A DNA stretch of 64,000 nt from Synechococcus sp. (GTDB lineage Bacteria; Cyanobacteriota; Cyanobacteriia; PCC-6307; Cyanobiaceae), in the NCBI GenBank assembly GCA_047285805.1, contig JBJBCN010000002.1, positions 1,312,001 through 1,376,000 of the forward strand, in the 5' to 3' direction. The translations under genes and the position numbers were made by a program. The notes beneath the pieces are model-generated. The model was not told the origin of the DNA. It ran no database searches and saw nothing but the letters and a program-made list of their open reading frames with translations. How positions within the stretch are numbered: position 1 is the first letter of the stretch; each line of letters opens with the position of its first letter. Positions 15,134 through 34,436 of the stretch are shown piece after piece.

Positions 15134-15149
15134 CCCTCACAGAATCACT

Positions 15150-15174
15150 GGCCTCCGAAAGGAGGCCTTTTTTA
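15150..15174 (+). terminator. Porin terminator
   Basis: GGCCTCC-GAAA-GGAGGCC followed by a T run. Confidence 0.9.
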
Positions 15175-15218
15175 TTGCCATAAAAAGCCCTCGGCTAGGA
15201 GGGCTTCAGAAGTAAGAA

Positions 15219-15449
15219 CTACCAACAATTCTCACCTTCTCCAATCGGCACACAAACCTCTTCTTGCTCGGCTTTCTCCTTGAAAGCTTTTAGCTCAGCA
15301 TCTGGCTTGGCCTCATCATCAACTTCTTGGTCAGTCGTCCACTCTTGAAAGCCTCCTTGAGGCGAAGACTGGGAGAATGCAGGAATGGCTGCCTGGGTCG
15401 AAAGAGCTGCTGTCGCCGCCAAAAGAATTGCAGCAGGGGATCTTTTCAT
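15219..15449 (-). CDS. Small secreted hypothetical protein
   Basis: Signal peptide, C-terminal CVPIGEGENCW, own terminator at 15182-15206. Confidence 0.7.
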   Translation of the reverse strand: MKRSPAAILLAATAALSTQAAIPAFSQSSPQGGFQEWTTDQEVDDEAKPDAELKAFKEKAEQEEVCVPIGEGENCW

Positions 15450-16294
15450 TTGGGTAATTGGTTTGACTCAATTATAGGACTTTCTGACCCATAAAGAGCC
15501 CCTGTAAACACAGTACTATCAGCTTGAAAGTCTTCGTAGAGCATTGGTGTAAGCCTGAAACACAAGATCGAGTTCTTCACTCCTCCCATGCTTTGCAAGG
15601 AGTCCCTTTGCCCCTGCATTTAAAGAAAGTAGGATTTGACGATCTTCCGCCGACTTGAGGTAGCTTTTTATCCGGACGCCACAAGCGGACCTCACTCCTT
15701 CTTCTATCTTACAAAGACGATGAATCGGTGAGTTTGGGTAGATGAAGAAATCGCCTATTTGTATAAGCTAGCTTTCGTCGAAATCAAGCCTTCAACTTGA
15801 AGCTGCCCCCTCATAGGCATCAAGATCACTTACGAAAACCGTAAATGAAAGATCTCTTCTGCGATAAGCGGTGAATGGGTTGTCTAAATACCAACCATAA
15901 CCAGATTCACACTTTGAAAGGATCATGCCGTGGATTCGCTCGGTATTGAAAAACTTGTACAAGGAGTTGGGTCAGTATCTTTTCGTTGATAAATCAGGAA
16001 ATTCTTTGGCAAGACTCGCTTGAAAGATATAGCTGCTGATTCTTTTTGACGGGTAATGCCTGAGCGCTGGCCCCCAAGCATCCATCCGCCAACTGGCGAG
16101 GTTCTAGACAGGTTCTTACTTGAACTTTTTAGACTTATAGCTGGAAATTACCTCTGCGGCAAGGACATCCATACGCGCATTAGCTTTTACAAGATTTAGT
16201 GCAGTTAACGTGGCAGATCAGACCTGAGCAGGTGATAAAAGTCACTAGAGACAAGTCTCCCCAGAGCTAAGATGAAGAAAGCAAAGGAAACTAA

Positions 16295-17407: not shown

Positions 17408-18370
17408 TCAGCCCAACCTCAGCGACGAGCTATCTGCAGGGTTGGCGGCGACGTAGCCACCAGTCGTCGACGCCGATGAATGGGCCAGCGTGCATTGCAG
17501 AGTGAACACGTCCCACCCCCTACGAATGGTATGGGTCGCGTGAGTGTGCCGGCACCTGTACGGGTGAAGCAGGCCCCCCGCCTCTTGGCCCCACTTGGCC
17601 ATTAGACCGGCCACGGCCTGACGGGTCAGCGGACCATCCCGACGATCAGACGGGAAGAGCCATTCCTCCACCTCACCGCGGCCGAGCGACTCGAACAGCG
17701 CGAGCGTCTCCTTACTTGTACGAACGGTGCGGGCCTTTGATCCCTTCCCAAGCAAATGAATCTGGGCACCGTCTTCCAGGGGCTCGCTGTCCTGCCAGCG
17801 CAAACGGCACAACTCGGTGACGCGACAACCGATCAGGTAGCGGCCTTTGACCATGACGAAGTCGCGCGCGGCTGTCCCACGGCCCTGGCCGTCGGCCGCC
17901 TTGGCAATCGTGGCCAGCACCATGCCCAACTCGTCATCGGTCAAAGCCTTGGCGAGCTTTGGAGCGTGCAGGGTGGCTCGGCGCGGCATCAGGTTTCGGG
18001 GAACTTCCGTCACCGCAGACCGGGTGGGCTCGGAGGCCCAGCGGTACATGGCACTGACGGCAGTGATGCGGCGGTTGAAACTGCGCGGCTTGAGTTCGTC
18101 AGCCGACACCATTTCCAGCAGCGAGGACACCCAGTCATCCACGAGGGCCGGGTCCAACTCCCGTAAGTGCAGGTGGGGGTGCAGCTCATCTCGCCAGCGG
18201 ACGAACGGGCGCAGCTCGCGGGCGTAGCCGTTGATGGTCTCCTGGCTCCCGGTGCGGCTGCACTGTTCAAGGAAACGCTTCAAAAGAAGGTCGTCTCCCC
18301 ACAGCACGGCCCCTGCCGTGGCGGCGTCGAACAGACGCGAGACGTACGCCAAAGCCTCCGCCTTATCCAT
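17408..18370 (-). CDS. XerC-like tyrosine recombinase of element C, probably decaying
   Basis: Close paralogue of 36282-37253; HxxR reads YRCR, LGH reads LAH. Confidence 0.85.
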   Translation of the reverse strand: MDKAEALAYVSRLFDAATAGAVLWGDDLLLKRFLEQCSRTGSQETINGYARELRPFVRWRDELHPHLHLRELDPALVDDWVSSLLEMVSADELKPRSFNRRITAVSAMYRWASEPTRSAVTEVPRNLMPRRATLHAPKLAKALTDDELGMVLATIAKAADGQGRGTAARDFVMVKGRYLIGCRVTELCRLRWQDSEPLEDGAQIHLLGKGSKARTVRTSKETLALFESLGRGEVEEWLFPSDRRDGPLTRQAVAGLMAKWGQEAGGLLHPYRCRHTHATHTIRRGWDVFTLQCTLAHSSASTTGGYVAANPADSSSLRLG

Positions 18371-18394
18371 GCCGTCGAGCAGGGGAGGAAGCTC

Positions 18395-18416
18395 TTTGCG
18401 TGCAGTTTTGCGTGCA
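18395..18416 (+). repeat. Arm-type direct repeat at the element C right end
   Basis: TTTGCGTGCA twice, same position relative to att and Xer gene as the element A right-end repeats. Confidence 0.7.
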
Positions 18417-18470
18417 ACCGGTTTTCGAGCTTCTGACGTAATCGCCAGATCGGTTGCGGCGGAATGATTG

Positions 18471-18510
18471 AAGGGGCCTTCCAGCCCCAGCGGATCATTT
18501 GGTTGATAAG
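18471..18510 (-). repeat. att copy (tmRNA 3' end duplicate), C/B junction
   Basis: AAGGGGCCTTCCAGCCCCAGCGGATCATTTGGTTGATAAG versus 37352-37391. Confidence 0.95.
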
Positions 18511-18613
18511 ACTGAGTGCCCCCAAAGCGGCACAGTTCTTTTCAGGCAGATGTCTTTCTAAGCCTGAGTTTACGAAAGCCACCCACAGCAAACGAAAGCT
18601 TGCGGGAGCTATT

Positions 18614-18636
18614 TTATCCGGAGAATTATCCGGGGA
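18614..18636 (+). repeat. Arm-type repeats, element B left end
   Basis: TTATCCGGAGA-A-TTATCCGGGGA directly before the integrase ATG. Confidence 0.8.
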
Positions 18637-18637
18637 G

Positions 18638-19876
18638 ATGGCCGCCGAAGCTTGGGAAAAGGGTTTCCGCGCTGCGATAAAAACCGGGAGACAGGGGTGG
18701 GGAGTAAGCAACGACAAGAGCACAGGCCGAGTGCGCCTAAAACTCCAGTTCCCAAAGGCGGGGGACTGGCCAAGCAATAGCTCGGTCAACCTGCCTTACG
18801 CCTGGACGCCAGCGTCGATCAACCCGGTGATCCAACTCGTCAATGCGGCCTATGGACCTGTCATGGAAGGTCAGGTCCCGCTCAAGGCGGCGATTGAGAA
18901 CCTGCTAGCCATAAGCGATCAAAAAGCTGATCTGGTGCGTACAGCCTGGCCAGGCATTGCGAGATCCTTCCGCACCAAAAAGCTAAGCACAGGAAATCGA
19001 ATAGCCGATAGCACTTACAGCGCTTCCTATGGGCGCTACATAGAAGTGGCCTTGCAACACCTGCAGGGTCCCAAGTCTGCTCAAACAGGAAAAGCGCTGA
19101 TCGAGCGTGTACTAATCCATCAACGAACCAACAAGAAGCCCGGCAAGCGTTTCGGAGAGCAGCTCACCCCCTGGATCGATCAGCCGAAATCCCGCATGCA
19201 GTGCTGCCTAGCGCTGAAACTGTTCCTTGAGTTTGCGGTTGCCGAGCATCGACAAGCGCAGTCCTTTCTGATCATCGAAAAGGACTACCTCCAGCTTCGT
19301 GGTGGTGATGGAAGGACAAGAAAGAAGGCAGTCCTTACAGATGCGCAGATATGCGAGCTCATCAGACTGCTCCCAGAGCACTGGAGCAACGTAGTGAAGG
19401 TGTGCCGATTGTTTGGCGTAAGGCCATGGGAGATCAACTTCATCGAACGACGCATCAACCCGGGGGGCGAACAACAGCTATTCGTCAGGAAGGGCAAAGA
19501 AGTCACCAGCCGAAGCGGTGTCAAAGAAGAAACTGAGCCCCGCTGGTTAGAAGCGGTGGCCATTGATGGAACGACATTTGGACTTGTCGAGAAGTGGGAG
19601 AGCTTGAAGCTTCCCGCAAGAGTCAGCGGGGCGAACCTAGGCGCCAGGTTGCGAAGGCTCCAGTACTGGAATTGTCTCGTTGAGGAATTCAAGGCCAACG
19701 GAGAATGGCTGCGTCCGTACTCGTTCCGAGACACCTTCAGCGTGCGTGCGCACGACCTGAACATCAGCAGCACAAACATCGCTCAAGCAATGGGCCACAG
19801 CGTTGAGGTCCATCACCGAAGCTATAGGACTTCGGAGTGGAAGGGCGTCAGAAAAGCCTTCCTCCGAGCTAGCTAA
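18638..19876 (+). CDS. Tyrosine integrase of element B
   Basis: FGVRPWE, RPYSFRD, AMGHS....H..SY catalytic motifs; adjacent to att. Confidence 0.9.
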   Translation: MAAEAWEKGFRAAIKTGRQGWGVSNDKSTGRVRLKLQFPKAGDWPSNSSVNLPYAWTPASINPVIQLVNAAYGPVMEGQVPLKAAIENLLAISDQKADLVRTAWPGIARSFRTKKLSTGNRIADSTYSASYGRYIEVALQHLQGPKSAQTGKALIERVLIHQRTNKKPGKRFGEQLTPWIDQPKSRMQCCLALKLFLEFAVAEHRQAQSFLIIEKDYLQLRGGDGRTRKKAVLTDAQICELIRLLPEHWSNVVKVCRLFGVRPWEINFIERRINPGGEQQLFVRKGKEVTSRSGVKEETEPRWLEAVAIDGTTFGLVEKWESLKLPARVSGANLGARLRRLQYWNCLVEEFKANGEWLRPYSFRDTFSVRAHDLNISSTNIAQAMGHSVEVHHRSYRTSEWKGVRKAFLRAS

Positions 19877-21174
19877 TGGGACGCCCTGCAAAAAACGAAA
19901 TCGGCAACACTTATGGCTTGCTGACAGTCGTTAGCGCCGGTCCCAAAAAGGGAAGTGCTACAGCTTGGATGTGTAGATGTGCTTGCGGAAATCAAGAGCT
20001 AATCCACTGCAGTGGGACGGAGCTAAGGGGAGGAGGTCGTAAAAGCTGTGGATGTATCAACCAGACACGACTGGAAGATCTGACTGGCCAGGTATTTGGA
20101 CACCTAACGGTTGTGGAGCGGGGTCCCAACATTGGGCGAAGACCAGGCTGGTCTTGTCAATGCGATTGCGGCAGCCCAAAACTTGTTCTTCTTAGAGCAG
20201 ACCAACTAAAGAAAGGAATCCCTGGAGACTGTGGCTGCTCGAAAACACCTTATACGAAAGGTATTTATGGTCCTTTTATCGATCGCCGGACGGCACTAAA
20301 GCAGGGGTTAACGCAGTACTTCCCTGGTTCTTTATGCGCTAAAGGGCACCTATCGCCAAGAATGACCTCTGGAGGATCATGCATGGTCTGCATACGCGAG
20401 CTGGCAGCAAAGAAACAGAAGGAGGGCTATTTCCGCGAATATGCAGCCAAGCGCAGAAAAACAGATCCCGACTGGAAGGCGAATAAAGCACGAGTAGCTC
20501 GAGAGTCATACCATCGTCATAAAGACGACGAGGGTGCCAAGGAAAAGAGAAGAGATTGGTACGAAAAGCACAAGACGACTGACTGGTACAAGGAGGCTTC
20601 AAAACGAGCCAAGGCCAAGTTCGTAGCTAGTGGGAAAAAAGCCCAGGCAGATCGGGCGTATAGCCAGAGCCAGGCAGGAACGGTTGCACGCATCAAAGCT
20701 CGCAGGGCGTGGCGAGAAAAGTTTGAGGCTGAGAAGGGCATGCCCATCAGCAGCTGGAGGCTGAAGAACGACCCTCAGTTCAAATTGCATGTCCGTTTAA
20801 ATCAACGCATCAGCGACGTCTTGAAGAGGCAGGGGGTCGTGAAAGCATCAAAAACAGTTGACCTAATAGATGCTGAAATCGTCCACTTCAAGGCTTATCT
20901 CGCAGCCAACTGGGTCGAGGGCATGAGCTGGGAGAACTACGGTCGAGATGGTTGGCACGTTGATCACATACGACCTTGTGCAAGTTTTGACCTCACGGAT
21001 GAGGACCAGCAACTCGTTTGCTTCAACTGGAGAAATCTAAGGCCCATGTGGGCCACCGAGAACATCTCCAAGAGCGATAACTATGACCCTGCAGATGAAG
21101 TCGAATGGGCTGAGATGATGGTTGAGCTTGGCTTTGAGGGTGAGCTTTTTCTCCTCTATACGACCAACGAATGA
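19876..21174 (+). CDS. Multi-domain HNH endonuclease
   Basis: Two G..(Y/F)G.LTV..W.C.C.CG..CGC repeats, a C.KGH...R....G.C..C module, C-terminal GMSWENYG..WHVDHIRP...NLRPMW..EN..K. Confidence 0.85.
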   Translation: MGRPAKNEIGNTYGLLTVVSAGPKKGSATAWMCRCACGNQELIHCSGTELRGGGRKSCGCINQTRLEDLTGQVFGHLTVVERGPNIGRRPGWSCQCDCGSPKLVLLRADQLKKGIPGDCGCSKTPYTKGIYGPFIDRRTALKQGLTQYFPGSLCAKGHLSPRMTSGGSCMVCIRELAAKKQKEGYFREYAAKRRKTDPDWKANKARVARESYHRHKDDEGAKEKRRDWYEKHKTTDWYKEASKRAKAKFVASGKKAQADRAYSQSQAGTVARIKARRAWREKFEAEKGMPISSWRLKNDPQFKLHVRLNQRISDVLKRQGVVKASKTVDLIDAEIVHFKAYLAANWVEGMSWENYGRDGWHVDHIRPCASFDLTDEDQQLVCFNWRNLRPMWATENISKSDNYDPADEVEWAEMMVELGFEGELFLLYTTNE

Positions 21175-21839: not shown

Positions 21840-22011
21840 CCAAGTTGAGATGCTGGGTTGATTCTGCACCAACTAGTCGCAACAAGCTACGGAATAAGCC
21901 CGAGGGAGTGATGCTCCTCGGGCGGAACTGCACCGCTGCAGGAGCTTTCGCGGTTATGCGATCGCGTCCTGCATCGCAGCGAAGCTTTCAGGGTGTCTGA
22001 CGGGGGAACGC

Positions 22012-22242
22012 TCATCCGAGCCTCTGAGCGGCCTCCCAGTACAGGCACGCTGTCTTGACTATCGGAGGTCCGTCCTTGAAAGGCAATGCGCATAAAGCCT
22101 GATTGCCCTCTGTTCGAATCAGGCCGATGGTGGGTCCATCGATCTCGGAGGCGTTTTGGACGACACTCCACCTCAGAAGCATCAGTGAGCTAGCTGACTG
22201 CAGACCCCTGCTCCACAGCTCTTTCTCATCCACCACGGGCAC
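22012..22242 (-). pseudogene. DUF1651-like remnant
   Basis: DGPPIVKT....EAAQRL resembles the DUF1651 core; truncated. Confidence 0.4.
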
Positions 22243-22510
22243 GTCCTAAATCTCGGTTCTGCCGGGGGACACTCCATCCGCACCCAGTGAGGTGCCCTAA
22301 GGAGCAAGAAGGCCCGCCAACTGGAAGCACGGCCCCAGGCGTCGAGATCAGAAGCTCCATCCATCTCTTTCGTCCATCAAGCAGTGGGTGCATCCCATGC
22401 ATGAACGACCTAGGTAGGCCGTCTCTTCCACCGGGGAGGGGCGGCCTTCCTTAATGAGTCGTAATTGGCGTTGCGGAGCGTCGGTCAAAATAGGGTGTCG
22501 CTTCAGAACT

Positions 22511-22798
22511 ATGCGCAAGCTTCTGCTCGGGACATTCGCAGTCTTGGCGGCTGCCCTTCCACTTGCGGCGCAGGAACTTTCGAGCCCCGACGGGACCGCT
22601 CCTGATGCGCCAGCACCTGCTGTCGAGCCACCCTCCATCTGGCTCGTTTTGCGATACGGAGTAGGCGGTCCTGGAGCGCTAGAAAAAATAGAGATGCGAG
22701 ACATGGCGCAATGTGAAATGCAAGGTGCCATTTGGGAGTCAAGTAAGCGCCTCAGTGAAGGTGGTTACACAGGTTTTGAGTGTATGGAAGGCAAATGA
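22511..22798 (+). CDS. Secreted two-Cys hypothetical protein
   Basis: Signal peptide; WLVL..KIEM..M.QCE.QG..W.SS..GFEC.EG; paralogue of 34072-34386. Confidence 0.8.
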   Translation: MRKLLLGTFAVLAAALPLAAQELSSPDGTAPDAPAPAVEPPSIWLVLRYGVGGPGALEKIEMRDMAQCEMQGAIWESSKRLSEGGYTGFECMEGK

Positions 22799-23322
22799 AA
22801 AGATTTAGAGCCGCATTATTGGTATCCGCGTCAATCTCATGTCTTGGCATGAATCCTGCTTTCGCCGACTTTGGAGATGCAGACTTTCCTGAAGCCCTGT
22901 TTAACGACGGTCCCCGCAGCTATCACGATGCTTGGTGCCGAAGGATAAAGAACAAGTGTCGGGTGCGCTTCCAGGGAAAGGGAATGTGGGTCGAGGGGCA
23001 AGGCGGGATTCAGCGCTCGCAACTAAAAAGTTTCAGAACAGATTTTGACGGAAACGAGTTCTATAACTATGTGGACTACATATCGTCGGAAGGCCGCCTT
23101 AAAAGTGCGTTATTCATGTTTTCAAACTTTGAAGCCAACAGGGAGTTCCTTCGCGCAGTGGTGAGGTGGCAGCGAATGGATGCAAGCCCAGTGCCGAACT
23201 TTCGTTTTCCAGCAAGCCAGGGTCCACAGGACACGCATGGTCGAGATAAGAGCTACGGCAGGAACAACAATCCTTATGCCAATCCGCCAATTACTGACTG
23301 GAAAGAAAAGACCACGCCCTAG
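22795..23322 (+). CDS. Secreted hypothetical protein
   Basis: ATGA overlap with upstream gene; close paralogue of 33473-33997. Confidence 0.85.
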   Translation: MKRFRAALLVSASISCLGMNPAFADFGDADFPEALFNDGPRSYHDAWCRRIKNKCRVRFQGKGMWVEGQGGIQRSQLKSFRTDFDGNEFYNYVDYISSEGRLKSALFMFSNFEANREFLRAVVRWQRMDASPVPNFRFPASQGPQDTHGRDKSYGRNNNPYANPPITDWKEKTTP

Positions 23323-23370: not shown

Positions 23371-23730
23371 TCACGCCATCAGCGAATGAATGATCTTAAT
23401 CAGTTCTGCTTTGGTGAGCTTCTCTAAGGGCGGTGGTGGTGCTTGAACATTATTTTCCTTTAACAACTTACATAGAGCTGACTTGTTCAGGCCAGAGAAT
23501 CGCTTTAGTCCGTTCTCTTTACAGAGACTTCGCAGGGTCTTCACCGACTGCTTTTCAAAGCTGCCTTTGCCGAGGAGCAAACTTAGTCTGTCTTCACCCT
23601 TAAGTCGGCCTGCGCCTGAATTGCCTTGATTCGCTTTTTGAAGTTCTTCGCTGATTTCGCGCAGGCTGCGTGCATCCGATTGCGCAACCTCTCTTAAGTT
23701 GGCCCTAAGGGCTTCAGAGATCTTTCCCAT
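23371..23730 (-). CDS. Helical protein with HeH/Rho-N-like domain (module gene Y2)
   Basis: SVKTLRSLCKENGLKRFSGLNKSALCKLL and LTKAELIKII; AAGGAG RBS inside the upstream gene. Confidence 0.75.
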   Translation of the reverse strand: MGKISEALRANLREVAQSDARSLREISEELQKANQGNSGAGRLKGEDRLSLLLGKGSFEKQSVKTLRSLCKENGLKRFSGLNKSALCKLLKENNVQAPPPPLEKLTKAELIKIIHSLMA

Positions 23731-24223
23731 CAGACTCCTTCAATTTGGCTTGAATCGACTGTTGCTTCTCGATAAGTGTTTCTAGCTTCTCTTTTGATCT
23801 TGTCCAGCGTGTGATGAACTCGATTACAGCCTTCATCAGGTTCCCAAGGAAGTTGCCGCCCTGATAGGTACGACGACCACTTCTGTAAGCCTCGAATTGA
23901 GTCACCAGATCATCTCCGGCATCTTCTAGCTCTCCAATAACTCCGGTCACAATCTCAAGCATTTCATAAGCCTCTGCTCGTACAGATGCTTCACGCTCGG
24001 CTATCGATCTGAGTTTCCCCTCTAGCTCAGACATGGCCGCGCGACTGCGTTGTGCTTGCCCGCGAAATTGTCCTCGACTCACCATGAGCCCCCTGTAGGA
24101 GCTTCTTAAATCCAAATAAACGGATTCCAGAGCCTCACGCTCTAGCTGACTTACCTCGGCAGGAAATGCGCTAGTTGAAGGGAGCATGCTGGTCATGGGG
24201 GTTGGTTCGTCTTTTTGATTCAT
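23714..24223 (-). CDS. Coiled-coil hypothetical protein (module gene X2)
   Basis: Paralogue of 24627-25091 (SRGQFRG, ELEDAG..L...FE, L..AV..FI). Confidence 0.75.
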   Translation of the reverse strand: MNQKDEPTPMTSMLPSTSAFPAEVSQLEREALESVYLDLRSSYRGLMVSRGQFRGQAQRSRAAMSELEGKLRSIAEREASVRAEAYEMLEIVTGVIGELEDAGDDLVTQFEAYRSGRRTYQGGNFLGNLMKAVIEFITRWTRSKEKLETLIEKQQSIQAKLKESDGKDL

Positions 24224-24265
24224 GAGCTTCTAGAGAAGAATCACAAGGGGGAATGACTCATCACA

Positions 24266-24640
24266 TCAATTTGAGAATTGCCTTTGGGAATCGATCCAGT
24301 ACGCCAGGAGTTGTTCGTAGCTGGGCGCTAGGGGTGCGTGGTTGTTTATCAGGAATGTGATTATGTCTGCCTTACGCTTCGGCTTACTTCTGTTCGGTAG
24401 GTTCATTCGGGTTGCTATCGCCCTCAGCTCGCCGACCTTTAGTTTCGAGAATTGATCTTCCTTGGCTGGAGGGAGTGCACGAAATGCCTCTGGTGCGAAG
24501 GCTTTTGCATCTACCTCCTCTCTTAAAGCGGCGAGAGCCTTGTTCTGGGAGTCAATATGAGATCCAATATCTCGTGCGAGTTGTTTATCAAGACTATTTA
24601 TCTCCTCAATAGCTGCTATTAGGCCATCAGCTATCGACAT
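24266..24640 (-). CDS. Helical protein with HeH/Rho-N-like domain (module gene Y1)
   Basis: FSKLKVGELRAIATRMNLPNRSKPKRKADIITFL; N-terminus aligns with Y2. Confidence 0.75.
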   Translation of the reverse strand: MSIADGLIAAIEEINSLDKQLARDIGSHIDSQNKALAALREEVDAKAFAPEAFRALPPAKEDQFSKLKVGELRAIATRMNLPNRSKPKRKADIITFLINNHAPLAPSYEQLLAYWIDSQRQFSN

Positions 24641-25091
24641 TGCTTTCACCCCTCACTGCGGCGAGACGAGCTTTTTGCTCTTCTCTGGCCTCTCTGGCTT
24701 GCTGCATGGCCAAACGGAAGGTCTGAATGAAAGCCCGCACTGCTTCCACGAGTGCACTGCCTGAAAACAAGCCCCAAGCACCGTTGTTTTCAAAAGCGTC
24801 TTCCAATGCGACGCCGGCGCCCTCAAGTTCCTTGAGTACTTGGCCGTAGCCCAAGACAATCTTGTTTAACTCTGCTTTTTGACGGAGGGTGAGGTCCATC
24901 TTTTCCTGGAACTCCAGCAGCTCTGCTTGGAGCTGAGCGATATGGGCCTTTTGCCTCGTGACAGTTCCCTTGTACTGACCCCTCGCGCGATTCAGGTACT
25001 GAGCTTCGTCGAACAGACGGTTGTAGAGCTTCAGGACATCGGCCCCAGGGTGGATGGGGTACCGGTTCCGCGTGATTTGTACTGGAGTCAT
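24627..25091 (-). CDS. Coiled-coil hypothetical protein (module gene X1)
   Basis: ARGQYKG, ELEGAG..L...FE, LVEAVRAFI. Confidence 0.75.
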   Translation of the reverse strand: MTPVQITRNRYPIHPGADVLKLYNRLFDEAQYLNRARGQYKGTVTRQKAHIAQLQAELLEFQEKMDLTLRQKAELNKIVLGYGQVLKELEGAGVALEDAFENNGAWGLFSGSALVEAVRAFIQTFRLAMQQAREAREEQKARLAAVRGESNVDS

Positions 25092-25173
25092 CGCTGTTCA
25101 GCCTGGTCCTTATCCGAAGTTTCTAGCACACAAGGTGTCTACACCCCGTGCTCACCCGGGCTACACTTATTTC

Positions 25174-25332
25174 ATGCCCACGACCAAGCCCCGAGTCGGC
25201 TGGATCATTGATCCCACGCTGCTCGACAAGCTCAAGGAGCTTTCCGATAAGAGCGGCCGTACCGTTCCCAAAGAGGCTGAACAGGCGATTAAGAACTGGC
25301 TTCAGCTCCACGGGAAGCTCCCCGTCGATTGA
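25174..25332 (+). CDS. Ribbon-helix-helix regulator
   Basis: 52 aa; beta-strand RVGWII then LLDKLKELSDKSGRTVPKEAEQAI; divergent from the four-gene operon. Confidence 0.75.
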   Translation: MPTTKPRVGWIIDPTLLDKLKELSDKSGRTVPKEAEQAIKNWLQLHGKLPVD

Positions 25333-25559
25333 AGCTCGGTCCTGGCCGCTGATCATTCGTAGGGCTGGTTACGTCAGTGGACTTGGCCCGTCTCTGTCAG
25401 TTCAGCGGCAATAAAAAACCGCGGTGGCTTCTCCGCGGCTTAGATCTCCCTACCCGGGACTCGTCCCAGATGTCGTCATGGTGCCGGCGGTGGGAGCCGC
25501 TTCAATAGGGACGCCTACTCATCTCTGGTAGAGGTATCGCAACCGGATAGGCCATTCGA

Positions 25560-25659
25560 GAAGGTTTTGAAGGTTTTAAAGGTGCTGTCCGCACAGGCAC
25601 GTGACTCAAGGCGAGTGATGCCCTTGGGGGAGGGGCCTTCAAAACCTTCAAAACCTTCA
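25560..25659. repeat. Inverted iteron arrays, putative replication origin of element B
   Basis: GAAGGTTTT-GAAGGTTTT-AAAGGT facing CCTTC-AAAACCTTC-AAAACCTTC, immediately downstream of the helicase. Confidence 0.75.
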
Positions 25660-25664
25660 GTCAC

Positions 25665-27035
25665 TCAGCTACTCATTGCTTTGAGCACCTCCTCGACAGG
25701 GCGAAAGAGTGATGCGGGGGCACCTCCCCGCCTCCCGTTCGAGTCTCTGAACCCGTCCTCAACGATCAGATGTTTGCGCTCTAAAGCCAGGAGCGTCTCC
25801 CTGGCCTTTTGAGGAGCATTCACCTCAATCCCCAAGGCATTGCCTAAGTGAACCGCATCCATACCCCTCTTGGTGGAGAGGTAGTGATGACATAGGTCTT
25901 TGAGCGCCTTGTACTGACGATCTGTGAGGTCGTCGAGCACTCCCTGAATTGCAGCTTGCCTTGCAACCTCCTCGCCGGATCCATGAAGGATCCAGCCAGT
26001 GTTGGTTTGCTCTATCAAGAGGTCAATTGGAGCTGACTCGCGGCCCTCTGCCATCAGCTTGCTCCGCTTGTCTCGTTGAGCGAGCGGGTTGTCATCGCCG
26101 TCCCCAAGAGACGCGATAGCAAGGGTTTGGCTCACGGCTCCGGGCAGAGCGTTATTGCCTCGACTGGCCTCTGAGGCCCGCAATGCACCAGGCCGTTTTT
26201 TTGCGTGGTGGATCAACAGCAGCGTTGCCTCGTGGGGAGCAAGTGCTTCTGTCAGATCGATGCAGGGGTCAGCAAAGGAGGCATCGCACTCCTGCAGCCC
26301 AAGCCTGCTGGTGAGTGCGTGATAGCTGTCGAGCAAAACGATCAACCCTGGGTAGCGGGTGCAGTAACCGGCAATTCGCTCGATGCCTTCCTCATCCATT
26401 GAAAGGGGCGCACCCTTATGGAAGAGGCTGACGATTGACGGGTGCATGCTCCGGTCTGGGTAAAGCAGGCCGGCACGCTTGAGGCATATCGCCCAGTCCC
26501 GTTGAGGTTGGTCGCTGCCAACGATCAGGATTTTGGGGTCCGGCCATGGATGCAGAGGCTGTCCCAAGAAGGACGTTTCACCACGGACCAGAGCGCCAAG
26601 GACGGCGCACATCAGCCGTGATTTGCCGACCTTTGGAGGGCCAACGAACAGGTTGCTCGTTGCCTTAAGCAGGACGTTCTCCCAGAGCCAAGGTGCTTCT
26701 TCGAAGGAAAGCTTTCCGCCTTGTGGGATGGGCTCAACGGCGCCCATCAGCTTTCGCCGCTCTTGCCCAAGTAGGCGGCGCATTTCGTCGTCTCGGACGC
26801 GCGTCTGAAGTTCAGATGCGGTTCGGCGTAGGTGGATAAGCCGCTGATGGCTGGGAATGGCCTCATCGCAAAGGAGATCCCGCGCCTTCCTCTGCAGGGT
26901 GCGTAGGTCCTCTGCTGCCGATGGCTTGCGTCGAGGGGTGGGGTCAACGCGTTTGAGCTGACCCTGAACGCGTTGTTGCCGTTCCCTTTGATCAAACGCG
27001 TCTGAGTTGTCGAGATATGCAAGTGGATCGCTCAT
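25665..27035 (-). CDS. RepA-like AAA-family replicative helicase
   Basis: Walker A GPPKVGKS, Walker B IVLLDS, LIHHAKK..RG motif; probable C-terminal winged helix. Confidence 0.85.
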   Translation of the reverse strand: MSDPLAYLDNSDAFDQRERQQRVQGQLKRVDPTPRRKPSAAEDLRTLQRKARDLLCDEAIPSHQRLIHLRRTASELQTRVRDDEMRRLLGQERRKLMGAVEPIPQGGKLSFEEAPWLWENVLLKATSNLFVGPPKVGKSRLMCAVLGALVRGETSFLGQPLHPWPDPKILIVGSDQPQRDWAICLKRAGLLYPDRSMHPSIVSLFHKGAPLSMDEEGIERIAGYCTRYPGLIVLLDSYHALTSRLGLQECDASFADPCIDLTEALAPHEATLLLIHHAKKRPGALRASEASRGNNALPGAVSQTLAIASLGDGDDNPLAQRDKRSKLMAEGRESAPIDLLIEQTNTGWILHGSGEEVARQAAIQGVLDDLTDRQYKALKDLCHHYLSTKRGMDAVHLGNALGIEVNAPQKARETLLALERKHLIVEDGFRDSNGRRGGAPASLFRPVEEVLKAMSS

Positions 27036-27292
27036 CTCGACCTCCTCGCCCACCGGGCCATTCGGAGGCAGCCGATCGGGTCTTGGCGCTCCAGAAGCGT
27101 TGCTGCTCGGTCGTAATCCGCTGAAGACCAGGTTTGTTCGCTGGTGAGACGCAGCAGCTTGCCGGTCAGATCAACGGAGTCCAGAGGCCGCGAAAAATCT
27201 CCGTAATGCCGCCAGCGGTAGCGCTTAGCGACAATTAGGTTGTCGTTAGACATTTCTTCGCGACCCCCAGCGCCAACTGGGGGTTTTTTCAT
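27032..27292 (-). CDS. Hypothetical protein
   Basis: ATGA-coupled to both neighbours. Confidence 0.6.
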   Translation of the reverse strand: MKKPPVGAGGREEMSNDNLIVAKRYRWRHYGDFSRPLDSVDLTGKLLRLTSEQTWSSADYDRAATLLERQDPIGCLRMARWARRSR

Positions 27293-27552
27293 GCCCGAAC
27301 CTGCACGAGGGGCTGGTGCAGACCGAAGGTTTCTACTGAAGAAGCAGGCATACGCCGAAAACCTGTAAAGGCGGCTTCAGTGGTGGCGATATTCCACTGG
27401 AGTGATCCTGCTGTTGTCATTCCAGACCATCGGTAGTGACTTCCCTCGACAAATGGGCTGCGCCCATCACGACGCAGCTTCAACAGCGTCTGCCTGTGAA
27501 TACCAAGGTGGTCAGCCATTACGGCCGAACTCACCCAACTTTGAATTTTCAT
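27289..27552 (-). CDS. Excisionase-like HTH protein
   Basis: MADHLGIHRQTLLKLRR..PF..G.HY; paralogue of 29875-30144. Confidence 0.75.
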   Translation of the reverse strand: MKIQSWVSSAVMADHLGIHRQTLLKLRRDGRSPFVEGSHYRWSGMTTAGSLQWNIATTEAAFTGFRRMPASSVETFGLHQPLVQVRA

Positions 27553-28005: not shown

Positions 28006-28043
28006 AAGGGGCCTTCCAGCCCCCATGGATCATTTGGTTGATA
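28006..28043 (-). repeat. att copy, B/A junction
   Basis: AAGGGGCCTTCCAGCCCCCATGGATCATTTGGTTGATA. Confidence 0.95.
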
Positions 28044-28144
28044 GGCATGATCCACAGGATTACGGAAGGAGTGGCCGCAAGCGATTTCGCCGTAAAGCCA
28101 GTCAGAGACTAATCCCAAAGACAGTCCTTGACAGTCGTAGGCGG

Positions 28145-28180
28145 TCAGACAAAACTAATTTGTCGGAAATTTGTCGGAAA
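28145..28180 (+). repeat. Arm-type repeats, element A left end
   Basis: TTTGTCGGAAA twice (28159, 28170) plus an inverted variant TCAGACAAAA at 28145. Confidence 0.85.
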
Positions 28181-28205
28181 TTTGCCCAGGCGGAACCTGT
28201 CCTCC

Positions 28206-29495
28206 ATGCCCCTGTGGGAGATGCGCCTGGTCTCCATTGCGGCCAAGTGGCCGGGATGGAGCATCACCAATGACAAGGGCTACGTCTGCGTTCGATACCG
28301 CGTAGCTGGGCAGCCAAGGCAACAAGTCAACCTGCCGAAGCTCCGGTACCGCGAAGAGGACGAAGTTGCGGCCATCACCATGGCCAGGCAGCTCTTCAAG
28401 GTTTGGGACAAGGCAGGAGGGGGGCTATCGCTGAAAGCAGCCTTAATTGAGGTCAAGGGCTCCTGCGATTCAGAGGGGTCGGCACAGGTCGTCACCTGGG
28501 GGCAGATCGTTGAGGCCATGCGCGAGGCAAAGGTCGAGAACGGCCGCAAGATCCAGCCCCAAACCTGGAAGACCAACTGGGCGCCGATCCTCAACCAAGC
28601 AGTGAGAGTTCTCAGCAGGAAGAACGCGCCGGCTGATGGCTACGAGTTGCTCAAGGCCGTTCAGAAGCATTGGAGCCACGCCCCCGCCACTCAGCGCGAG
28701 TGCGCCCGATACCTCAGTCGCTGGATGGAATTTGCAGAGCGGCGATACAAGGTCCCGCGGAGCTGGTTGATAACCGAGGCCGACAGGCAGGAGCTGGCGC
28801 CCCGAGCGCCCAAGCGAAGGAAGAAGGCCGTCCTGGAAGACGTTGAGATCTTGGAGTTCGTCGAACTGGTCGAGGCCCACAGCCCAGCCTGGTCGAACGT
28901 CTTCCGCCTGTGCGCGCAATACGGGTTACGACCGACTGAACTGCAGTACCTGTCAATCGTTAAGGACCCGATCACAGGCCAGCGGACGTTCTGGTGTTCG
29001 TACGAAAAAGACGCCGGCGGTGAGGCAAGTACAGAGCCTCGGTACCTGCGGGCCATGTACTTGCGGGACGCTGACGACAGGCCGGTGCAGTGGCCACTGA
29101 TCGATGCGTGGGAGGCAGGAACACTGGCTCTTCCTCAGGACAGGAACGGCGGGCTACGCAAGCTGAGCGGTTCTGCTGTGAATACCTACCTGGCGCGCCA
29201 GGGCAAAGACGGCGGCCCTGCCAGTGCGGTTCAACGATGGTGGAAGGCCAAGGTCGCCGAGTACGCATCAAAGCCCCAGCCCGAGTGGCTGAGGGCTTAT
29301 TCGTTTCGGGACAGCTACAGCGTCAGGTGCCATCGCGAGGGCCTTCCGCTGGATGTGATTGTCAATGCGATGGGCCATTCCCACCAGGTCCATCAGCAGA
29401 GCTACCGAACCGTCACGAACTCAATCGTGGCCCGGGCTTTCGAATCTTGTGCCACAGATTTGCGGCTCCCGTCTACACCAGATACGGAGGACTGA
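28206..29495 (+). CDS. Tyrosine integrase of element A
   Basis: YGLRPTE, RAYSFRD, AMGHS....H..SY; same family as 18638-19876. Confidence 0.9.
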   Translation: MPLWEMRLVSIAAKWPGWSITNDKGYVCVRYRVAGQPRQQVNLPKLRYREEDEVAAITMARQLFKVWDKAGGGLSLKAALIEVKGSCDSEGSAQVVTWGQIVEAMREAKVENGRKIQPQTWKTNWAPILNQAVRVLSRKNAPADGYELLKAVQKHWSHAPATQRECARYLSRWMEFAERRYKVPRSWLITEADRQELAPRAPKRRKKAVLEDVEILEFVELVEAHSPAWSNVFRLCAQYGLRPTELQYLSIVKDPITGQRTFWCSYEKDAGGEASTEPRYLRAMYLRDADDRPVQWPLIDAWEAGTLALPQDRNGGLRKLSGSAVNTYLARQGKDGGPASAVQRWWKAKVAEYASKPQPEWLRAYSFRDSYSVRCHREGLPLDVIVNAMGHSHQVHQQSYRTVTNSIVARAFESCATDLRLPSTPDTED

Positions 29496-29600
29496 CTGTC
29501 GAAAATGGCGTCAAACCGCCACAAATGGTGTACGTTGGCGATGAACTCGGAGCAGCCGTCGGCGCACGGACCGAGTCTTGATTAACCCAAGTCTTCAAGC

Positions 29601-29924
29601 GTGCCTGTCACCGAGGGGCAAATCCTCCAGATGGTGCGAAGCACTGAGAGGCAGCAACTTCCTAGCTGGCTCGAAGTTCGCCGCAGCAAGTTTCAACGCT
29701 TCGTGGTCAACATGACCCGTAGCGGTGCGGTGCCGATTAGCGACTGCAGCCGTATGACCGTCAAACTAGGCGGAGAGCTGCTGAGCCCTGAGCAACGCGG
29801 ACGGTTCTGGAAATTTGCCCAGAAGTGGCAAGACCATTTGCTGAAAGACGCGGGAGGCCAAAAGGAGGGTCGCAATGTCTATTGCGTCACCAACAACAGA
29901 GCCAGCCTTCGCGACAACAAGTGA
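29601..29924 (+). CDS. Hypothetical protein
   Basis: ORF co-oriented within the int-xis-primase run. Confidence 0.55.
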   Translation: MPVTEGQILQMVRSTERQQLPSWLEVRRSKFQRFVVNMTRSGAVPISDCSRMTVKLGGELLSPEQRGRFWKFAQKWQDHLLKDAGGQKEGRNVYCVTNNRASLRDNK

Positions 29925-30144
29925 TGTCGCCGAAGCGGCCCAGCTTCACAAAGAGACGCTGCTCAAATTGCGGCGCTTAGGGCCCGAGGGCCCGTTCAAA
30001 CTTGGACGCGATTACGTCCACCTGGGTAGTGGCAACCGCCGACTCGGGTGGAACAAGAGCCAGGCGCTGAAAAGCCTCTGGAGTTTCAACCGGCAGAGCT
30101 GGAGAGAGGTGGAAACCTTCTCCGGTTCGCGGAACCCGCGCTGA
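29875..30144 (+). CDS. Excisionase-like HTH protein
   Basis: VAEAAQLHKETLLKLRR..GPF..G.DY...VETF; GGAGG RBS. Confidence 0.75.
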   Translation: MSIASPTTEPAFATTSDVAEAAQLHKETLLKLRRLGPEGPFKLGRDYVHLGSGNRRLGWNKSQALKSLWSFNRQSWREVETFSGSRNPR

Positions 30145-30160
30145 GCAGAGGGCGACTCTG

Positions 30161-32134
30161 ATGCTCAATAAACAAGCGCGCCAACAATGGCGCGAGGACG
30201 TTCATCGTCTGAACGGGTTTCCACTCCTGCCTTGTGGCGGGGGTGCAAGTGGGAAGGCCCCACTAATCAAGAGCTGGCCAACAGCTAGCTGCAGCCCTGA
30301 AGAGGTGCTGGCGACACCCGGACTCCGCAGTGTCGGCATCCGCCTTGGGCCCGATGCCGGAGGGCTGGTCTGCATCGACTACGACGGCGCATCAGCCGTT
30401 GATTACGCCGCCGGCTTTGGCCATGACGCAAGGGAACTTACGTCCTGGGTCATTGGCCGCGACAGCGATGCGGATCGGTTCAAGGCCGTCTACCGCGTGG
30501 GCGAGAACGACTGGGGGGCACTCCCTGGGAAGACCGTCCACAGCACCGGTCCCGGCGAGCAAGTCGAGGTCTTCTTCAAAAGCGGACAGGTCATCGTCTT
30601 GGGCGAGCACGTCCCAAGTGGCGGCCATTACCGCTGGCTTCACGGAGGGCCTGAGTCAATCGAACCCCTCCCCCGTGAGTTGGCTGAAATGTGGTTTGCG
30701 GCCATCGCCAGCAGCCCTAGCTCAACCGCCCGCGGGGGGCGCGGCGAATGGCGGGATTGTGTGCCCTGCACGATTTGCGGCAGGACCGAACCCGACTGTC
30801 GAATCAGCGGCGACGGGCGAACGATTGCTTGCCACCGGGGCATCAGGTGGACCCCTCCATTCCTGAAGCCTGGGGAGACGATCAAACGAGGCGACACCTC
30901 CTGGGCCTACTGCGGCGAGACCCAGACAGCGGTGGGGGCAGCGGCGCTCTTCAAAATCGACGAAACGCAAGTGCCATTGCGAAAGAAGCCGATGGTCCCT
31001 CCAAGTGAGGGGCTTCGGCTGATGAGTCAGGAACTGCATGGTGTCCCACGCCTCAATGTGCGGACGCGCGCAATCCACGTCGAAGACCAGGTGTTCACCG
31101 CTGAACAAGCGGCAAACGTTTACCTCGGCCTGTCGCAACGGGGGCGGTACTGCTGGCCCAAGCAACTAGCCGTCGATTGCCTAACGGCATTGGCCTCCAA
31201 AAACGAGTTCGACCCCGTCCGGGACTATCTCGACTCGATCAGAGCGGAGCCGCTGCCAATGGAGCAGTGGGACCGTTTGGACAGGTTGCTCTTCGGAACC
31301 GACGACACCATCACCGCGGCATTCTTCAAGCGGTACTTGGTTAGCGCGGTTCAAAGGGTCTTCGAACCCGGGTGCCCGCAAAGGATCTTGCCCGTTTTGG
31401 TCGGGCCACAAGCCATCGGGAAAACCACCCTGGGCAGTGCACTATTCGGCGTTGAGTTCTACGGCGATGCCGTCAGCGGCAACGCAAAGCTCGACGTTGA
31501 TGACATCACCTCGATGGGTCTGACGTGGGCCACCGAGCTGGCCGAGCTAGACGGCCTTACTCGGAAGGCTCAAACGGCGTCGCTGAAAGCCTTCGTCTCT
31601 CGCACTCACGACCTCATCAGGAGGAAGTACCACCACGGTTCGGAGCGGGTGCCCCGGCGCAGTGTGTTGTTTGGCACTAGCAACCAGTGGCCGCTGAATG
31701 ACCCAACAGGGTCAACGCGGTTCTGCCTGATCTCGCTGGGCAAAAAACCACTCCCCTTCAACGAAGTCGCTCAGCTGCGCGACAACATTTGGGCGAGGGC
31801 TTTGGTCCAGTACCGCGACGGCTACCAGCCATTTCCAACCGCTCAAGAGGCCAAGGAAATTGCTGAACGCAATGCCTGTTACGACCCTGAGGATCCGCTT
31901 GAAGGCAAGCTCAGGCGCCTAGTCGAGCGAAAGGCGAGCGCGCCATACATCACGTTGGACGAAGTGCTCGATTTCATCGGCGCAGATCCAACAGGCTCGC
32001 CACAACTAAGCGCACGGCTCAATGTCGTTATGGCGCAACTGGGCTGGGACAAAAAGCGCCTCAGGTTCAACGGGCAAGGAAAAGTCTCTGCGTACTGGCC
32101 TGCGGCCAGGGAGGGCAGGGATGAAAGCGCATAA
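30161..32134 (+). CDS. Bifunctional primase-polymerase fused to VirE/VapE-like helicase
   Basis: KAP..W, G.....GLVCIDYD prim-pol motifs; CxxC module; Walker A GPQAIGKT, ELAELD, GTSN, DPTGSTRF. Confidence 0.88.
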   Translation: MLNKQARQQWREDVHRLNGFPLLPCGGGASGKAPLIKSWPTASCSPEEVLATPGLRSVGIRLGPDAGGLVCIDYDGASAVDYAAGFGHDARELTSWVIGRDSDADRFKAVYRVGENDWGALPGKTVHSTGPGEQVEVFFKSGQVIVLGEHVPSGGHYRWLHGGPESIEPLPRELAEMWFAAIASSPSSTARGGRGEWRDCVPCTICGRTEPDCRISGDGRTIACHRGIRWTPPFLKPGETIKRGDTSWAYCGETQTAVGAAALFKIDETQVPLRKKPMVPPSEGLRLMSQELHGVPRLNVRTRAIHVEDQVFTAEQAANVYLGLSQRGRYCWPKQLAVDCLTALASKNEFDPVRDYLDSIRAEPLPMEQWDRLDRLLFGTDDTITAAFFKRYLVSAVQRVFEPGCPQRILPVLVGPQAIGKTTLGSALFGVEFYGDAVSGNAKLDVDDITSMGLTWATELAELDGLTRKAQTASLKAFVSRTHDLIRRKYHHGSERVPRRSVLFGTSNQWPLNDPTGSTRFCLISLGKKPLPFNEVAQLRDNIWARALVQYRDGYQPFPTAQEAKEIAERNACYDPEDPLEGKLRRLVERKASAPYITLDEVLDFIGADPTGSPQLSARLNVVMAQLGWDKKRLRFNGQGKVSAYWPAAREGRDESA

Positions 32135-32225
32135 CTCCCCTTATTACCTACCCCCTCTCTCTCCAGTTATGGAAAAAACCCCTGACCACCCCGCCCACTC
32201 ATCCACCAACCCCCTGAACTCCACC

Positions 32226-32675
32226 ATGTCTCAGACAAAGCAACTCCCCGAAGGCATCCAATTCAGCGACGTCTACATCACTGACACAGTCAGTCAGCCA
32301 GCCCGTAAAGGACTGATCGACTCCAGTCAGCTATTGAAGTCTGATTGCCACTATCTAAAGCTCTGGAGCGAAGCGGAAGTAATCAGCGAACAGGCCCTCT
32401 ACGACTGGCAGGTTGAAATCAACAACTGGCAGATCGACATTGAAGACAAGGTCCGCCACAACGGAGGAATACCTCACGGATGCATTAGGGACGGGAACGG
32501 AAAGTTCCTCTACATGTGCGAACCGATCTGGGTGATCGGCAAGGGTGGTGACTACTGGTTCACCGTCTTCAACAACACGCCAGAGACAATGGCCTTCACC
32601 TCCCTGCGCGATGCCTGCATGTTCGTGCAGGGCTGGAAGCTCAAAACGCACGGACCAGACTCAGAGATGGGCTAA
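32226..32675 (+). CDS. Hypothetical protein
   Basis: Coherent ORF followed by a terminator. Confidence 0.65.
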   Translation: MSQTKQLPEGIQFSDVYITDTVSQPARKGLIDSSQLLKSDCHYLKLWSEAEVISEQALYDWQVEINNWQIDIEDKVRHNGGIPHGCIRDGNGKFLYMCEPIWVIGKGGDYWFTVFNNTPETMAFTSLRDACMFVQGWKLKTHGPDSEMG

Positions 32676-32683
32676 ACGTTCTG

Positions 32684-32713
32684 CCCCCGGGGTCTGACCT
32701 CGGGGGCTTTTTT
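32684..32713 (+). terminator. Intrinsic terminator
   Basis: GCCCCCGGGGTC-T-GACCTCGGGGGC followed by a T run. Confidence 0.8.
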
Positions 32714-32763
32714 GTGACGTAACCAGCCTTACGGGCCATGCTGGGCTGAGCCGCCTTCATGTC

Positions 32764-33402
32764 GTGCTTCGCCTTCTCGTAGCCCTTGCCGCCCTCAGCG
32801 CAGGGACAGCCTTGGCCCAGGGGCAGGTCGACCCCGCCATTCACAAGCTCTGCATTGAGGCGAAGGACTATGCAGGCTGCGTCAGAGCAATGAAAGGCGA
32901 GCCAGCTCCCACCACTCGCATCATCAATTCAGCAGGTGCTGAAGTGGCGGAAGGTAATCAATGCCCTGCATCTATGGCTTACAGGGGTGGGGGTAATTGC
33001 CAGGAAGTCATCTGTGCTGACCATGGGATGTGGTTCGTTGGGCCTCATAACCCGCTGCTTGCCGGTAAGACATGGAAATGCACTGGAGGCGGGATTGGCA
33101 GCCCAGGGAGATTGGCTTGGGGTGCGACCACCGCAAGAGCTTCTCAGAATCCAAACTGCCCCGCTGGTGAAATAGAGATTGGATACAACAGCACTTGCGA
33201 CAAACCTCCATTTGGATGGGAAAGCCCTGCTGCCAAGGCTGCACGCGAAGAAAGGGAAGGCCCTAAGTGCGACTTCAAGCTCAAGGCATACAAGTGCAGC
33301 TACAACGCGTACCTCGATGCCAACCCAGGCATGAAGAAATGGGCTGAACTAAACCCGGAACTTGCCCAAAAAGAAAGGCTCAAGCTGCAGTCAGTTGACT
33401 AA
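32764..33402 (+). CDS. Secreted Cys-rich hypothetical protein
   Basis: Signal peptide; VDP.IHKLC..AKDY.GCV motif; many cysteines. Confidence 0.8.
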   Translation: MLRLLVALAALSAGTALAQGQVDPAIHKLCIEAKDYAGCVRAMKGEPAPTTRIINSAGAEVAEGNQCPASMAYRGGGNCQEVICADHGMWFVGPHNPLLAGKTWKCTGGGIGSPGRLAWGATTARASQNPNCPAGEIEIGYNSTCDKPPFGWESPAAKAAREEREGPKCDFKLKAYKCSYNAYLDANPGMKKWAELNPELAQKERLKLQSVD

Positions 33403-33472
33403 CCACCAAGCAATCTCTCTGCAACTTGCCCAGTAGTTACGCAAGGCTGATTACGACCGACCAAGCCTGCCG

Positions 33473-33997: not shown

Positions 33998-34071
33998 TTA
34001 CTGCTCTCCATTCATGCAAATCTCCACATTTGCCATAGCCGCATGGGGACATTGAAGACCACTCTGCACTT

Positions 34072-34386: not shown

Positions 34387-34436
34387 GTTGGGAACCTGGC
34401 TGCCCTCCATGTTGCCCTAGCACACCGCAACGGTAA

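Follow-up and report, generated by a model that had tools for sequence, protein, structure and literature searches.

Druantia type II, composed of DruE2 and DruF2, is one of the described systems closest to a pair of small genes, here called X and Y, which we analysed in a stretch of 64,000 nucleotides from a picocyanobacterial genome (Synechococcus sp., contig JBJBCN010000002.1 of assembly GCA_047285805.1, positions 1,312,001 to 1,376,000; the window). DruE is a helicase, and its partner in type III, DruH, binds single-stranded DNA (10.64898/2026.05.12.722862); a coiled-coil insertion of type II DruE has been proposed to contact a coiled-coil partner (10.1101/2025.09.15.676423). Further points of comparison are the accessory genes in the variable slots of restriction-modification (RM) and DISARM operons, type II toxin-antitoxin pairs, HeH proteins of the SAP/Rho-N type (the Ku70 SAP domain, the Rho N-terminal domain, chloroplast PEPS1), the H-NS/Lsr2/MvaT silencers and the cargo-carrying tycheposons. 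SAP domains bind DNA without sequence preference, as one source also states (10.64898/2026.06.23.732312), and tycheposons integrate at tRNA or tmRNA genes and consist of integration, replication and cargo modules (10.1101/2020.12.28.424599). Compared with these systems, we tentatively read X-Y as a non-catalytic DNA-binding scaffold serving anti-phage defence, a reading that we consider possible rather than probable.

The window carries two X-Y pairs. A preliminary description of this DNA had listed four leftward genes in the order X1-Y1-X2-Y2 next to a divergent gene of 52 aa, and all four open reading frames (ORFs) are present:

24627-25091, minus strand: X1, a coiled-coil protein of 154 aa from the X1 clade of the X family
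24266-24640, minus strand: Y1, 124 aa from the ATG at 24640, N-terminal helix and Rho-N/SAP HeH domain
23714-24223, minus strand: X2, 169 aa, predicted hairpin of two long helices
23371-23730, minus strand: Y2, 119 aa, N-terminal helix, linker, SAP/HeH domain, PPPP and trailing helix
25174-25332, plus strand: ribbon-helix-helix (RHH)/Arc-like protein, 52 aa, divergent from X1
25134-25145, no strand: palindrome GGTGT-CT-ACACC, candidate RHH operator
25416-25441, minus strand: terminator-like hairpin, matched to a consensus only and lying between the gene for the helicase and the RHH/X1 region

The Y1 frame opens at a GTG (24649), and the ATG at 24640 is the start favoured by homologues. Homologues of X2 begin near residue 10-13, and the likely X2 start lies at about 24196 or 24187. 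Each X overlaps its Y and contains the ribosome-binding site of the latter, as had been noted: the X1/Y1 overlap is 14 nt long with GAGGGG 8 nt upstream of the Y1 ATG, and the X2/Y2 overlap is 17 nt long with AAGGAG 5 nt upstream of the Y2 ATG. Translational coupling within each pair is thereby supported.

Searches in the 301 genomes of the host's taxonomic family revealed X2 matches in 88 of them (79 of the 209 genomes of good quality) and X1 matches in 44; the Y profile matched 104 genomes, but this number also covers the RNA polymerase repeats treated below. The named homologues belong to Synechococcus and Cyanobium. A profile search of cluster representatives recovered 227 proteins; P0197, P0222 and P0238 were set aside as apparently chimeric assemblies. 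Relatives of X2 nearly always have an overlapping Y behind them. Y stands behind X in 29 of the 30 best X2 loci, and the single miss is cut off by the end of its contig. In a wider set of 40 loci this is so for 37, the other three being two loci with a divergent partner of weak N-terminal likeness (probability 27%) and one with an X fragment. The similarities of X and Y correlate over 52 pairs (rho 0.66; the rows are related and the test is not independent), and both genes decay jointly in three genomes (G080, G076 and G032). Outside the family X was found in 10 of 367 cyanobacterial genomes, each time followed by a co-oriented gene for 131-194 aa. In these loci from other cyanobacterial families (L108-L117) the gene behind X keeps the N-terminal helix, and its small middle domain is of another type that Pfam does not match: a domain swap in the presumed DNA-binding head. 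The conserved unit is the single X-Y pair. One 324-aa protein (P0262) appears to be X fused to a divergent Y-type partner; it is a single record and may be a read-through artefact.

The distant paralogy of X1 and X2 that had been noticed by eye is confirmed by their alignment (36% identity over 67 aa, E 5e-7). For Y1 and Y2 the corresponding claim holds at the level of profiles, where iterated hidden Markov models built from either protein recover the other (E 1e-37 and 6e-27), but it fails in pairwise BLAST, which gave no alignment (E 5.5). X1Y1 and X2Y2 occupy separate well-supported clades in the trees, which comprise 68 X proteins and 52 Y proteins; the bootstrap had not settled, and the Y tree is a quick version. 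Because both pairs sit in separate deep clades of both trees, their arrangement in the window is best read as the juxtaposition of two old modules, and not as the local duplication of a two-gene module that had been assumed. Clades of the X1Y1 and of the X2Y2 type each occur alone in other genomes, and a direct X-Y-X-Y order was found at no other locus examined. The tandem is not unique to this isolate, since contigs from three metagenome studies cover the whole block (one contig of 998 nt joins X2 into Y1); RNA contigs from one metatranscriptome cover parts of Y2, X2 and X1, a coverage that cannot show transcription.

The divergent regulator goes with only one of the two pairs. The 52-aa gene is present as described, and its assignment as RHH comes from weak matches (Pfam TraY, E 0.009, and RHH_3, E 0.035; PHROG Arc-like repressor, E 4e-4). 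The palindrome between this gene and X1 was found where it had been reported; it occurs once in the window versus 0.01 matches expected for a pattern picked after being seen, and it is intact in genome G209 and partial in G076. The RHH gene itself was seen only together with X1's subclade (G209, G076 and a broken copy in G032). RHH-X1-Y1 and X2-Y2 are therefore separate travelling units, and the RHH protein likely regulates the transcript led by X1. The idea of an X-Y-X-Y system under one RHH regulator does not hold up, and nothing suggests a tetramer of both pairs.

The anatomy of the two proteins agrees with the combination of a coiled coil and a HeH protein that had been proposed from the letters. 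The model of X2 (pLDDT 87, pTM 0.49) consists of a helix of 90 residues, a turn and a helix of 45 residues, and a hydrophobic-faced helix after the turn is kept in all X clades. The near-invariant residues of X are P, L, Y, R, S-R-G, L, E and G, a set that does not seem to point to an active site. In the model of Y2 (pLDDT 68) an N-terminal helix of 33 residues and a disordered linker precede a two-helix HeH domain (residues 63-72 and 83-92) and a trailing helix after PPPP. The Y profile matched the SAP domain of Ku70 (1jjr, E 1e-8) and the N-terminal domain of Rho (E 0.001) in the PDB, and the weak structural matches of Y are SAP/Rho-N domains too, with a root-mean-square deviation of 0.9-1.9 Å over 37-38 residues. 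Profile match and two-helix extended fold identify the middle domain of Y as a HeH domain of the SAP/Rho-N type; single-sequence Pfam SAP matches were under the cut-off for Y1 and Y2 and over it for one homologue (L188). In contrast to the described SAP/Rho-N proteins, Y is a free protein of 120 aa that carries an N-terminal helix and has a coiled-coil partner gene of its own. A complex prediction for X2 and Y2 with alignments (score 0.08, mark 0.32) was counted neither for nor against binding.

No library assigned the proteins to a named system, as the first inspection had anticipated. None of X1, Y1, X2, Y2 and RHH reached the curated cut-offs of Pfam or NCBIfam, PADLOC-DB 2.0 gave no family for any of the five at E up to 1, and their PHROG matches were weak (E 1e-4 at best). 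Foldseek against the PDB returned nothing at E <= 0.001 for X or Y, the X profile retrieved only generic coiled coils from the PDB sequences, and the ESM Atlas contained only clusters of 'hypothetical protein', all from Cyanobacteriota. Three identities suggested by weak matches were rejected: WXG100/ESAT-6 for X (E 0.05, below the cut-off, confined to the coiled-coil stretch and with no conserved WXG column), and CREPT and UPF0758, both below the cut-off. We found no description of the X-Y pair or of the fusion of X to DruF (X::DruF) in the open-access literature, where supplementary tables of defence predictions could list unnamed candidates; PMC11090510 and PMC3898017 contributed nothing specific.

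A link of the locus to defence had been offered as one possibility, and the RM, DISARM and Druantia neighbourhoods of related loci make it probable. The neighbourhoods were tallied in 40 loci of about 18 kb, among them two near-identical pairs, by clustering the genes and scanning one representative per cluster. Genes of type I, IIG or III RM, GmrSD, PLD-SNF2 or Mokosh/Hma-like systems were found in 19 of the 40; four more contain candidate systems only (PDC-M21, HNH nuclease) and 17 none. In one X clade RM genes lie downstream of the pair at all 11 loci, and at 10 of them they share its orientation and are the very next genes. In two more pairs, picked by a weak Y match alone, the gene upstream of Y is a divergent X (probability 33% in the single case compared), and hsdM follows directly. 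X-Y is often the first gene pair of an operon. At one locus (L124) it lies within a complete DISARM operon with the order drmD, Fic, methylase, X, Y, MNT, HEPN, drmA, drmB, drmC, and a second locus (L125) resembles it by gene sizes and Pfam matches.

In heading defence operons or lying inside them as a small coupled pair, X-Y resembles the accessory genes of RM and DISARM slots and the type II toxin-antitoxin modules; it differs from them in having no nuclease, nucleotidyltransferase or other toxin domain and no family in PADLOC, Pfam or NCBIfam. This resemblance raises the alternative of a stand-alone abortive-infection or toxin-antitoxin pair, in which X would be a toxic helical effector held by the N-terminal helix of Y and freed when phage DNA or proteins draw Y off; the target of X might then be the membrane, reached by way of the amphipathic helix conserved at its C-terminus. 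The strict coupling of two small genes, the position in variable slots of the DISARM operon beside Fic and MNT-HEPN modules, the roughly half of the loci with no enzymatic partner, the hydrophobic-faced helix past the turn in all clades and the joint decay of X and Y all fit such a pair. However, neither a toxin fold nor a transmembrane helix was seen by Pfam, PDB profile, Foldseek or the X2 model, SAP is not a typical operator-binding domain of type II antitoxins, and the presence of an intact X on a large soluble Druantia subunit, described next, reads as an interaction module. We regard this alternative as rather unlikely.

X also occurs as the N-terminal domain of proteins with 854-1118 aa. 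One of these (P0252) matches DruF2 (E 3e-11); over 940 aa it shares 39% identity with a DruF2-like protein without X, which lies directly 5' of DruE2 in genome G167 and in the same order in G217. Nine genomes have the large protein, fused to X in six, unfused in two and only as a fragment in one. In all six genomes with the fusion, the X-fused DruF-like gene lies directly behind a free X-Y pair, and one locus shows the complete order X-Y-X::DruF-DruE2 (L163:7313-17503). The DruF-like subunit at L164 and L165 has no X and precedes DruE; DruE2 is convergent or about 10 kb away at L162 and in G080, and type I RM genes occur instead at L159-L161. The fusions of 854-920 aa do not contain the region that matches the DruF2 model. 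X and Y match no Dru model, and most X-Y pairs have no Druantia gene nearby. This is also true of the pairs in the window, where no DruF-like subunit and no DruE was found (no ORF of the element exceeds 470 aa); the DruE helicase gene was seen only in related loci (L162, L163 and L166). We infer that X is an oligomerisation module drawing the Druantia subunit into the X-Y complex. As an observation in its own right, the loci L163:7313-17503, L107, L159-L162, L164 and L165 represent a cyanobacterial variant of Druantia in which DruE2 is combined with a DruF-like subunit that may or may not carry X at its N-terminus; at some X::DruF genes no DruE lies inside the fetched stretch.

The presumed DNA-binding part of the pair has been built into another protein as well. 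In one genus (g9) the RNA polymerase subunit RpoC2 (beta''), 2,470-2,620 aa long, contains four tandem copies of the C-terminal SAP unit of Y2 (hhalign probability 98%, E 1e-13), and all 10 genomes of the genus match the Y profile, two of them checked by Pfam. The annotated examples are:

L186:9211-17070, minus strand: RpoC2 of g9, four SAP units
L187:8796-16202, minus strand: RpoC2 of g9, four SAP units
L186:17122-19485, minus strand: RpoC1 of g9, 787 aa, also with a SAP match

X was without a match in four of the five g9 genomes in which it was sought. The repeats in RpoC2 and this absence of X show that the Y-type SAP domain is portable and works independently of X, and the repeats fit a portable DNA-binding module. 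A Y-profile search aimed at long proteins came back empty, but it missed the RpoC2 repeats recovered by the genome search and is thus uninformative. For SAP-expanded cyanobacterial RpoC2 no description was found in the open-access literature.

A promoter element connects one X clade with other genes. The box TATGCA-N5-TGCATA occurs upstream of X in 16 of 77 regions, 12 times at -86 to -88 in one clade, versus a background of 0.009 per region. Three genomes (G022, G093 and G143; L127-L148) have 6, 11 and 4 sites versus 0 for the reversed pattern, and their sites lie upstream of hsdM, DrmD, DruE-like helicases and X-Y; four of the 21 sites precede X-Y and nine precede defence-type genes (four confirmed by PADLOC, the others read from the sequence). 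One site precedes a gene that we take to be cyAbrB-like, as does one in the genome of the window (C2:365900). The box has the T-N11-A geometry of LysR-type sites and may resemble an NtcB box. It is a candidate operator of a likely defence regulon, to which it ties one X-Y clade. As a general X-Y operator the box was rejected, since it is absent at this locus and in 61 of the 77 upstream regions, and no upstream motif is common to all X clades.

The polymerase repeats and the promoter box bear on a further alternative, namely that X-Y is a chromatin or transcription factor of genomic islands, a split DNA bridger or regulator of the H-NS/Lsr2 kind that silences or tunes acquired operons, including the defence operons that it heads. 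An oligomerisation rod combined with a non-specific DNA-binding head is the design of H-NS. The frequent first position of X-Y in operons, the SAP units of the g9 polymerase, the palindrome that one X clade has in common with the presumed cyAbrB-like gene and the location of the non-picocyanobacterial copies outside defence islands are all consistent with silencing, as is the DNA binding of the SAP repeats of a chloroplast polymerase subunit (10.64898/2026.06.23.732312). The likeness to the silencers is nevertheless one of design only, an oligomerising coiled coil and a small DNA-binding head associated with acquired DNA. X-Y splits both functions over two genes, and no match to H-NS, Lsr2 or MvaT was obtained in Pfam, NCBIfam, the PDB sequences or Foldseek. 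Plasmid KfrA, which we take to be alike in design, likewise has no sequence or structure match. A silencer would moreover not be expected in fusion with DruF or in the middle of a DISARM operon, and the lack of an upstream motif across all X clades also speaks against it. We consider this explanation unlikely.

For X-Y as a scaffold in defence, the following mechanism can be envisaged. X would be the coiled-coil rod and Y the SAP-domain head of a joint complex, with the N-terminal helix of Y docked onto X. X would oligomerise and in this way pull X::DruF into the complex. SAP domains in general bind DNA without sequence preference, and the complex would likewise grip DNA, its target being invading DNA. 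Where a partner system is present, X-Y would tether its nuclease or helicase; in the window, no enzymatic partner adjoins the pairs, so both may act alone or with host systems in trans. An extended form of this proposal sees X-Y as a plug-in DNA-tethering adaptor common to unrelated cyanobacterial defence machines. X would be the docking rod, which enzymes join by gaining an X domain as DruF of Druantia did, Y would be the SAP grip on DNA that was captured even by RNA polymerase, and in Cyanobium-type genomes X-Y would be in one regulon with RM, DISARM and Druantia operons. This extended form seems unlikely to us.

A number of observations weigh against a role as defence scaffold. No restriction-type neighbour was found in 21 of the 40 tallied loci, four of these having candidate defence genes only. 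The share is 6 of 14 with such neighbours for X2's subclade, and for X1's clade it is 0 of 4, and 0 of 7 other loci with the added set, as far as genes were scanned. The control, in which loci of the neighbouring 180-aa cargo gene showed RM in 1 of 12 cases, is weak and poorly matched, because 12 of 19 fetched loci were screened, with ORFs of >=380 aa only and mostly in small genomes. The host element itself has no known defence partner beyond an HNH-like gene, and PADLOC-DB 2.0 contains no model for X or Y. Housekeeping genes surround the 10 X copies of other families, as judged by a scan of the nearest neighbours, and the Y of these copies has the different middle domain, which argues against a purely defensive superfamily. 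Genes in islands cluster for many reasons, and the fixed position of the promoter box is accounted for by common descent. Taken together, X-Y is a real and widespread two-gene family without a name. Circumstantial evidence ties it strongly to DNA-targeting defence, two fusions are informative, and its function we infer.

Both pairs belong to the cargo of an integrated element, whose main features and surroundings are:

37332-37641: tmRNA gene
18471-18508, no strand: left att-like repeat, copy of the tmRNA-end sequence at 37352-37398
28006-28052, no strand: right att-like repeat, copy of the tmRNA-end sequence
18464-19876, plus strand: tyrosine integrase (PHROG integrase, E 5.5e-7), ORF limits with the true start further in
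19876-21174, plus strand: HNH/endonuclease VII-like gene, 432 aa, cargo directly behind the integrase
25665-27053, minus strand: AAA_25 helicase-like replication gene
27289-27552, minus strand: excisionase-like helix-turn-helix gene (HTH_17, E 7e-4; DUF1233, E 0.009)

The copies of the tmRNA end at 18471-18508 and 28006-28052 delimit tandem integrated elements. The element between these repeats is 9.6 kb long, with the integrase directed inward from the left and the excisionase-like and AAA_25 genes inward from the right, and about 6 kb of it are cargo. It thus has the integrase and att repeats at tmRNA and the helicase and excisionase-like replication genes of a cargo-carrying tycheposon; the likeness concerns the vehicle and not the cargo, since most X-Y pairs lie outside such elements. 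No terminase (terS) or capsid gene was found among the main ORFs of the element scanned with Pfam and PHROG, and for this reason the element resembles a tycheposon of the cargo type more than a satellite that exploits a helper. Helper interference, which had been considered at first, is left without support.

The setting suggests a last alternative, in which X-Y is selfish cargo that helps mobile DNA to establish itself, by anti-restriction or protection from self-restriction, and merely accumulates together with defence genes. Two copies of the X1 clade adjoin tycheposon-type replication genes (VapE at L054, AAA_25 at L063), a gene for the anti-restriction protein ArdC lies near X-Y at L044, and a protector from self-restriction would also adjoin RM genes. 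Against this, X2 had no match in 50,697 phage records, in 72,556 plasmid records or, at the level of close relatives, in IMG/VR, although distant viral copies may exist, and no likeness to known anti-restriction proteins appeared in any library scanned. We judge this explanation improbable.

Several other features of the region were recorded. The gene at 19876-21174 is a candidate homing endonuclease or defence nuclease. An inverted repeat of GAAGGTTTTGAAGGTTTT units at 25560-25658, just 3' of the helicase gene, is a possible iteron replication origin. A non-coding-looking repeat at 21958-22450 has several copies in its own genome and very high contig depth (100-600) in DNA and RNA runs; it may be a mobile repeat or a small RNA. 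Two Xer-like recombinase genes (17408-18515 and 36282-37396), 90% identical, each lie directly left of an att repeat, and together with the similarity of 10466-10974 to 34445-34952 they suggest at least three tandem elements at the tmRNA gene. The neighbouring element at 28006-37398 encodes an integrase at 28128-29495 and a Prim-Pol/VapE replication protein at 30161-32134; it also has small cargo genes and, at 34437-35687, unassigned ones. Adjacent elements carry paralogous signal-peptide-like gene pairs, for 114/180 aa at 22454-23322 (plus strand) and 112/174 aa at 33473-34410 (minus strand); the 180-aa family has no Pfam match and occurs in 24 of the 301 genomes. A porin-like region at 13503-15673 has a 2.2-kb copy with 99.6% identity at C2:916547-918718 and several partial copies.

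About one third of the sampled picocyanobacterial genomes contain the X-Y pair, for which there is nevertheless neither a name nor a family model nor a structure. The repetition of its SAP unit in RNA polymerase beta'' is a surprise by itself, possibly greater than the pair, and the X::DruF fusion predicts a physical link to Druantia. If X-Y is indeed a non-enzymatic scaffold wired to restriction, DISARM and Druantia, it would add a kind of defence component that is missed in highly abundant phototrophs by catalogues that are built on nuclease and toxin domains.

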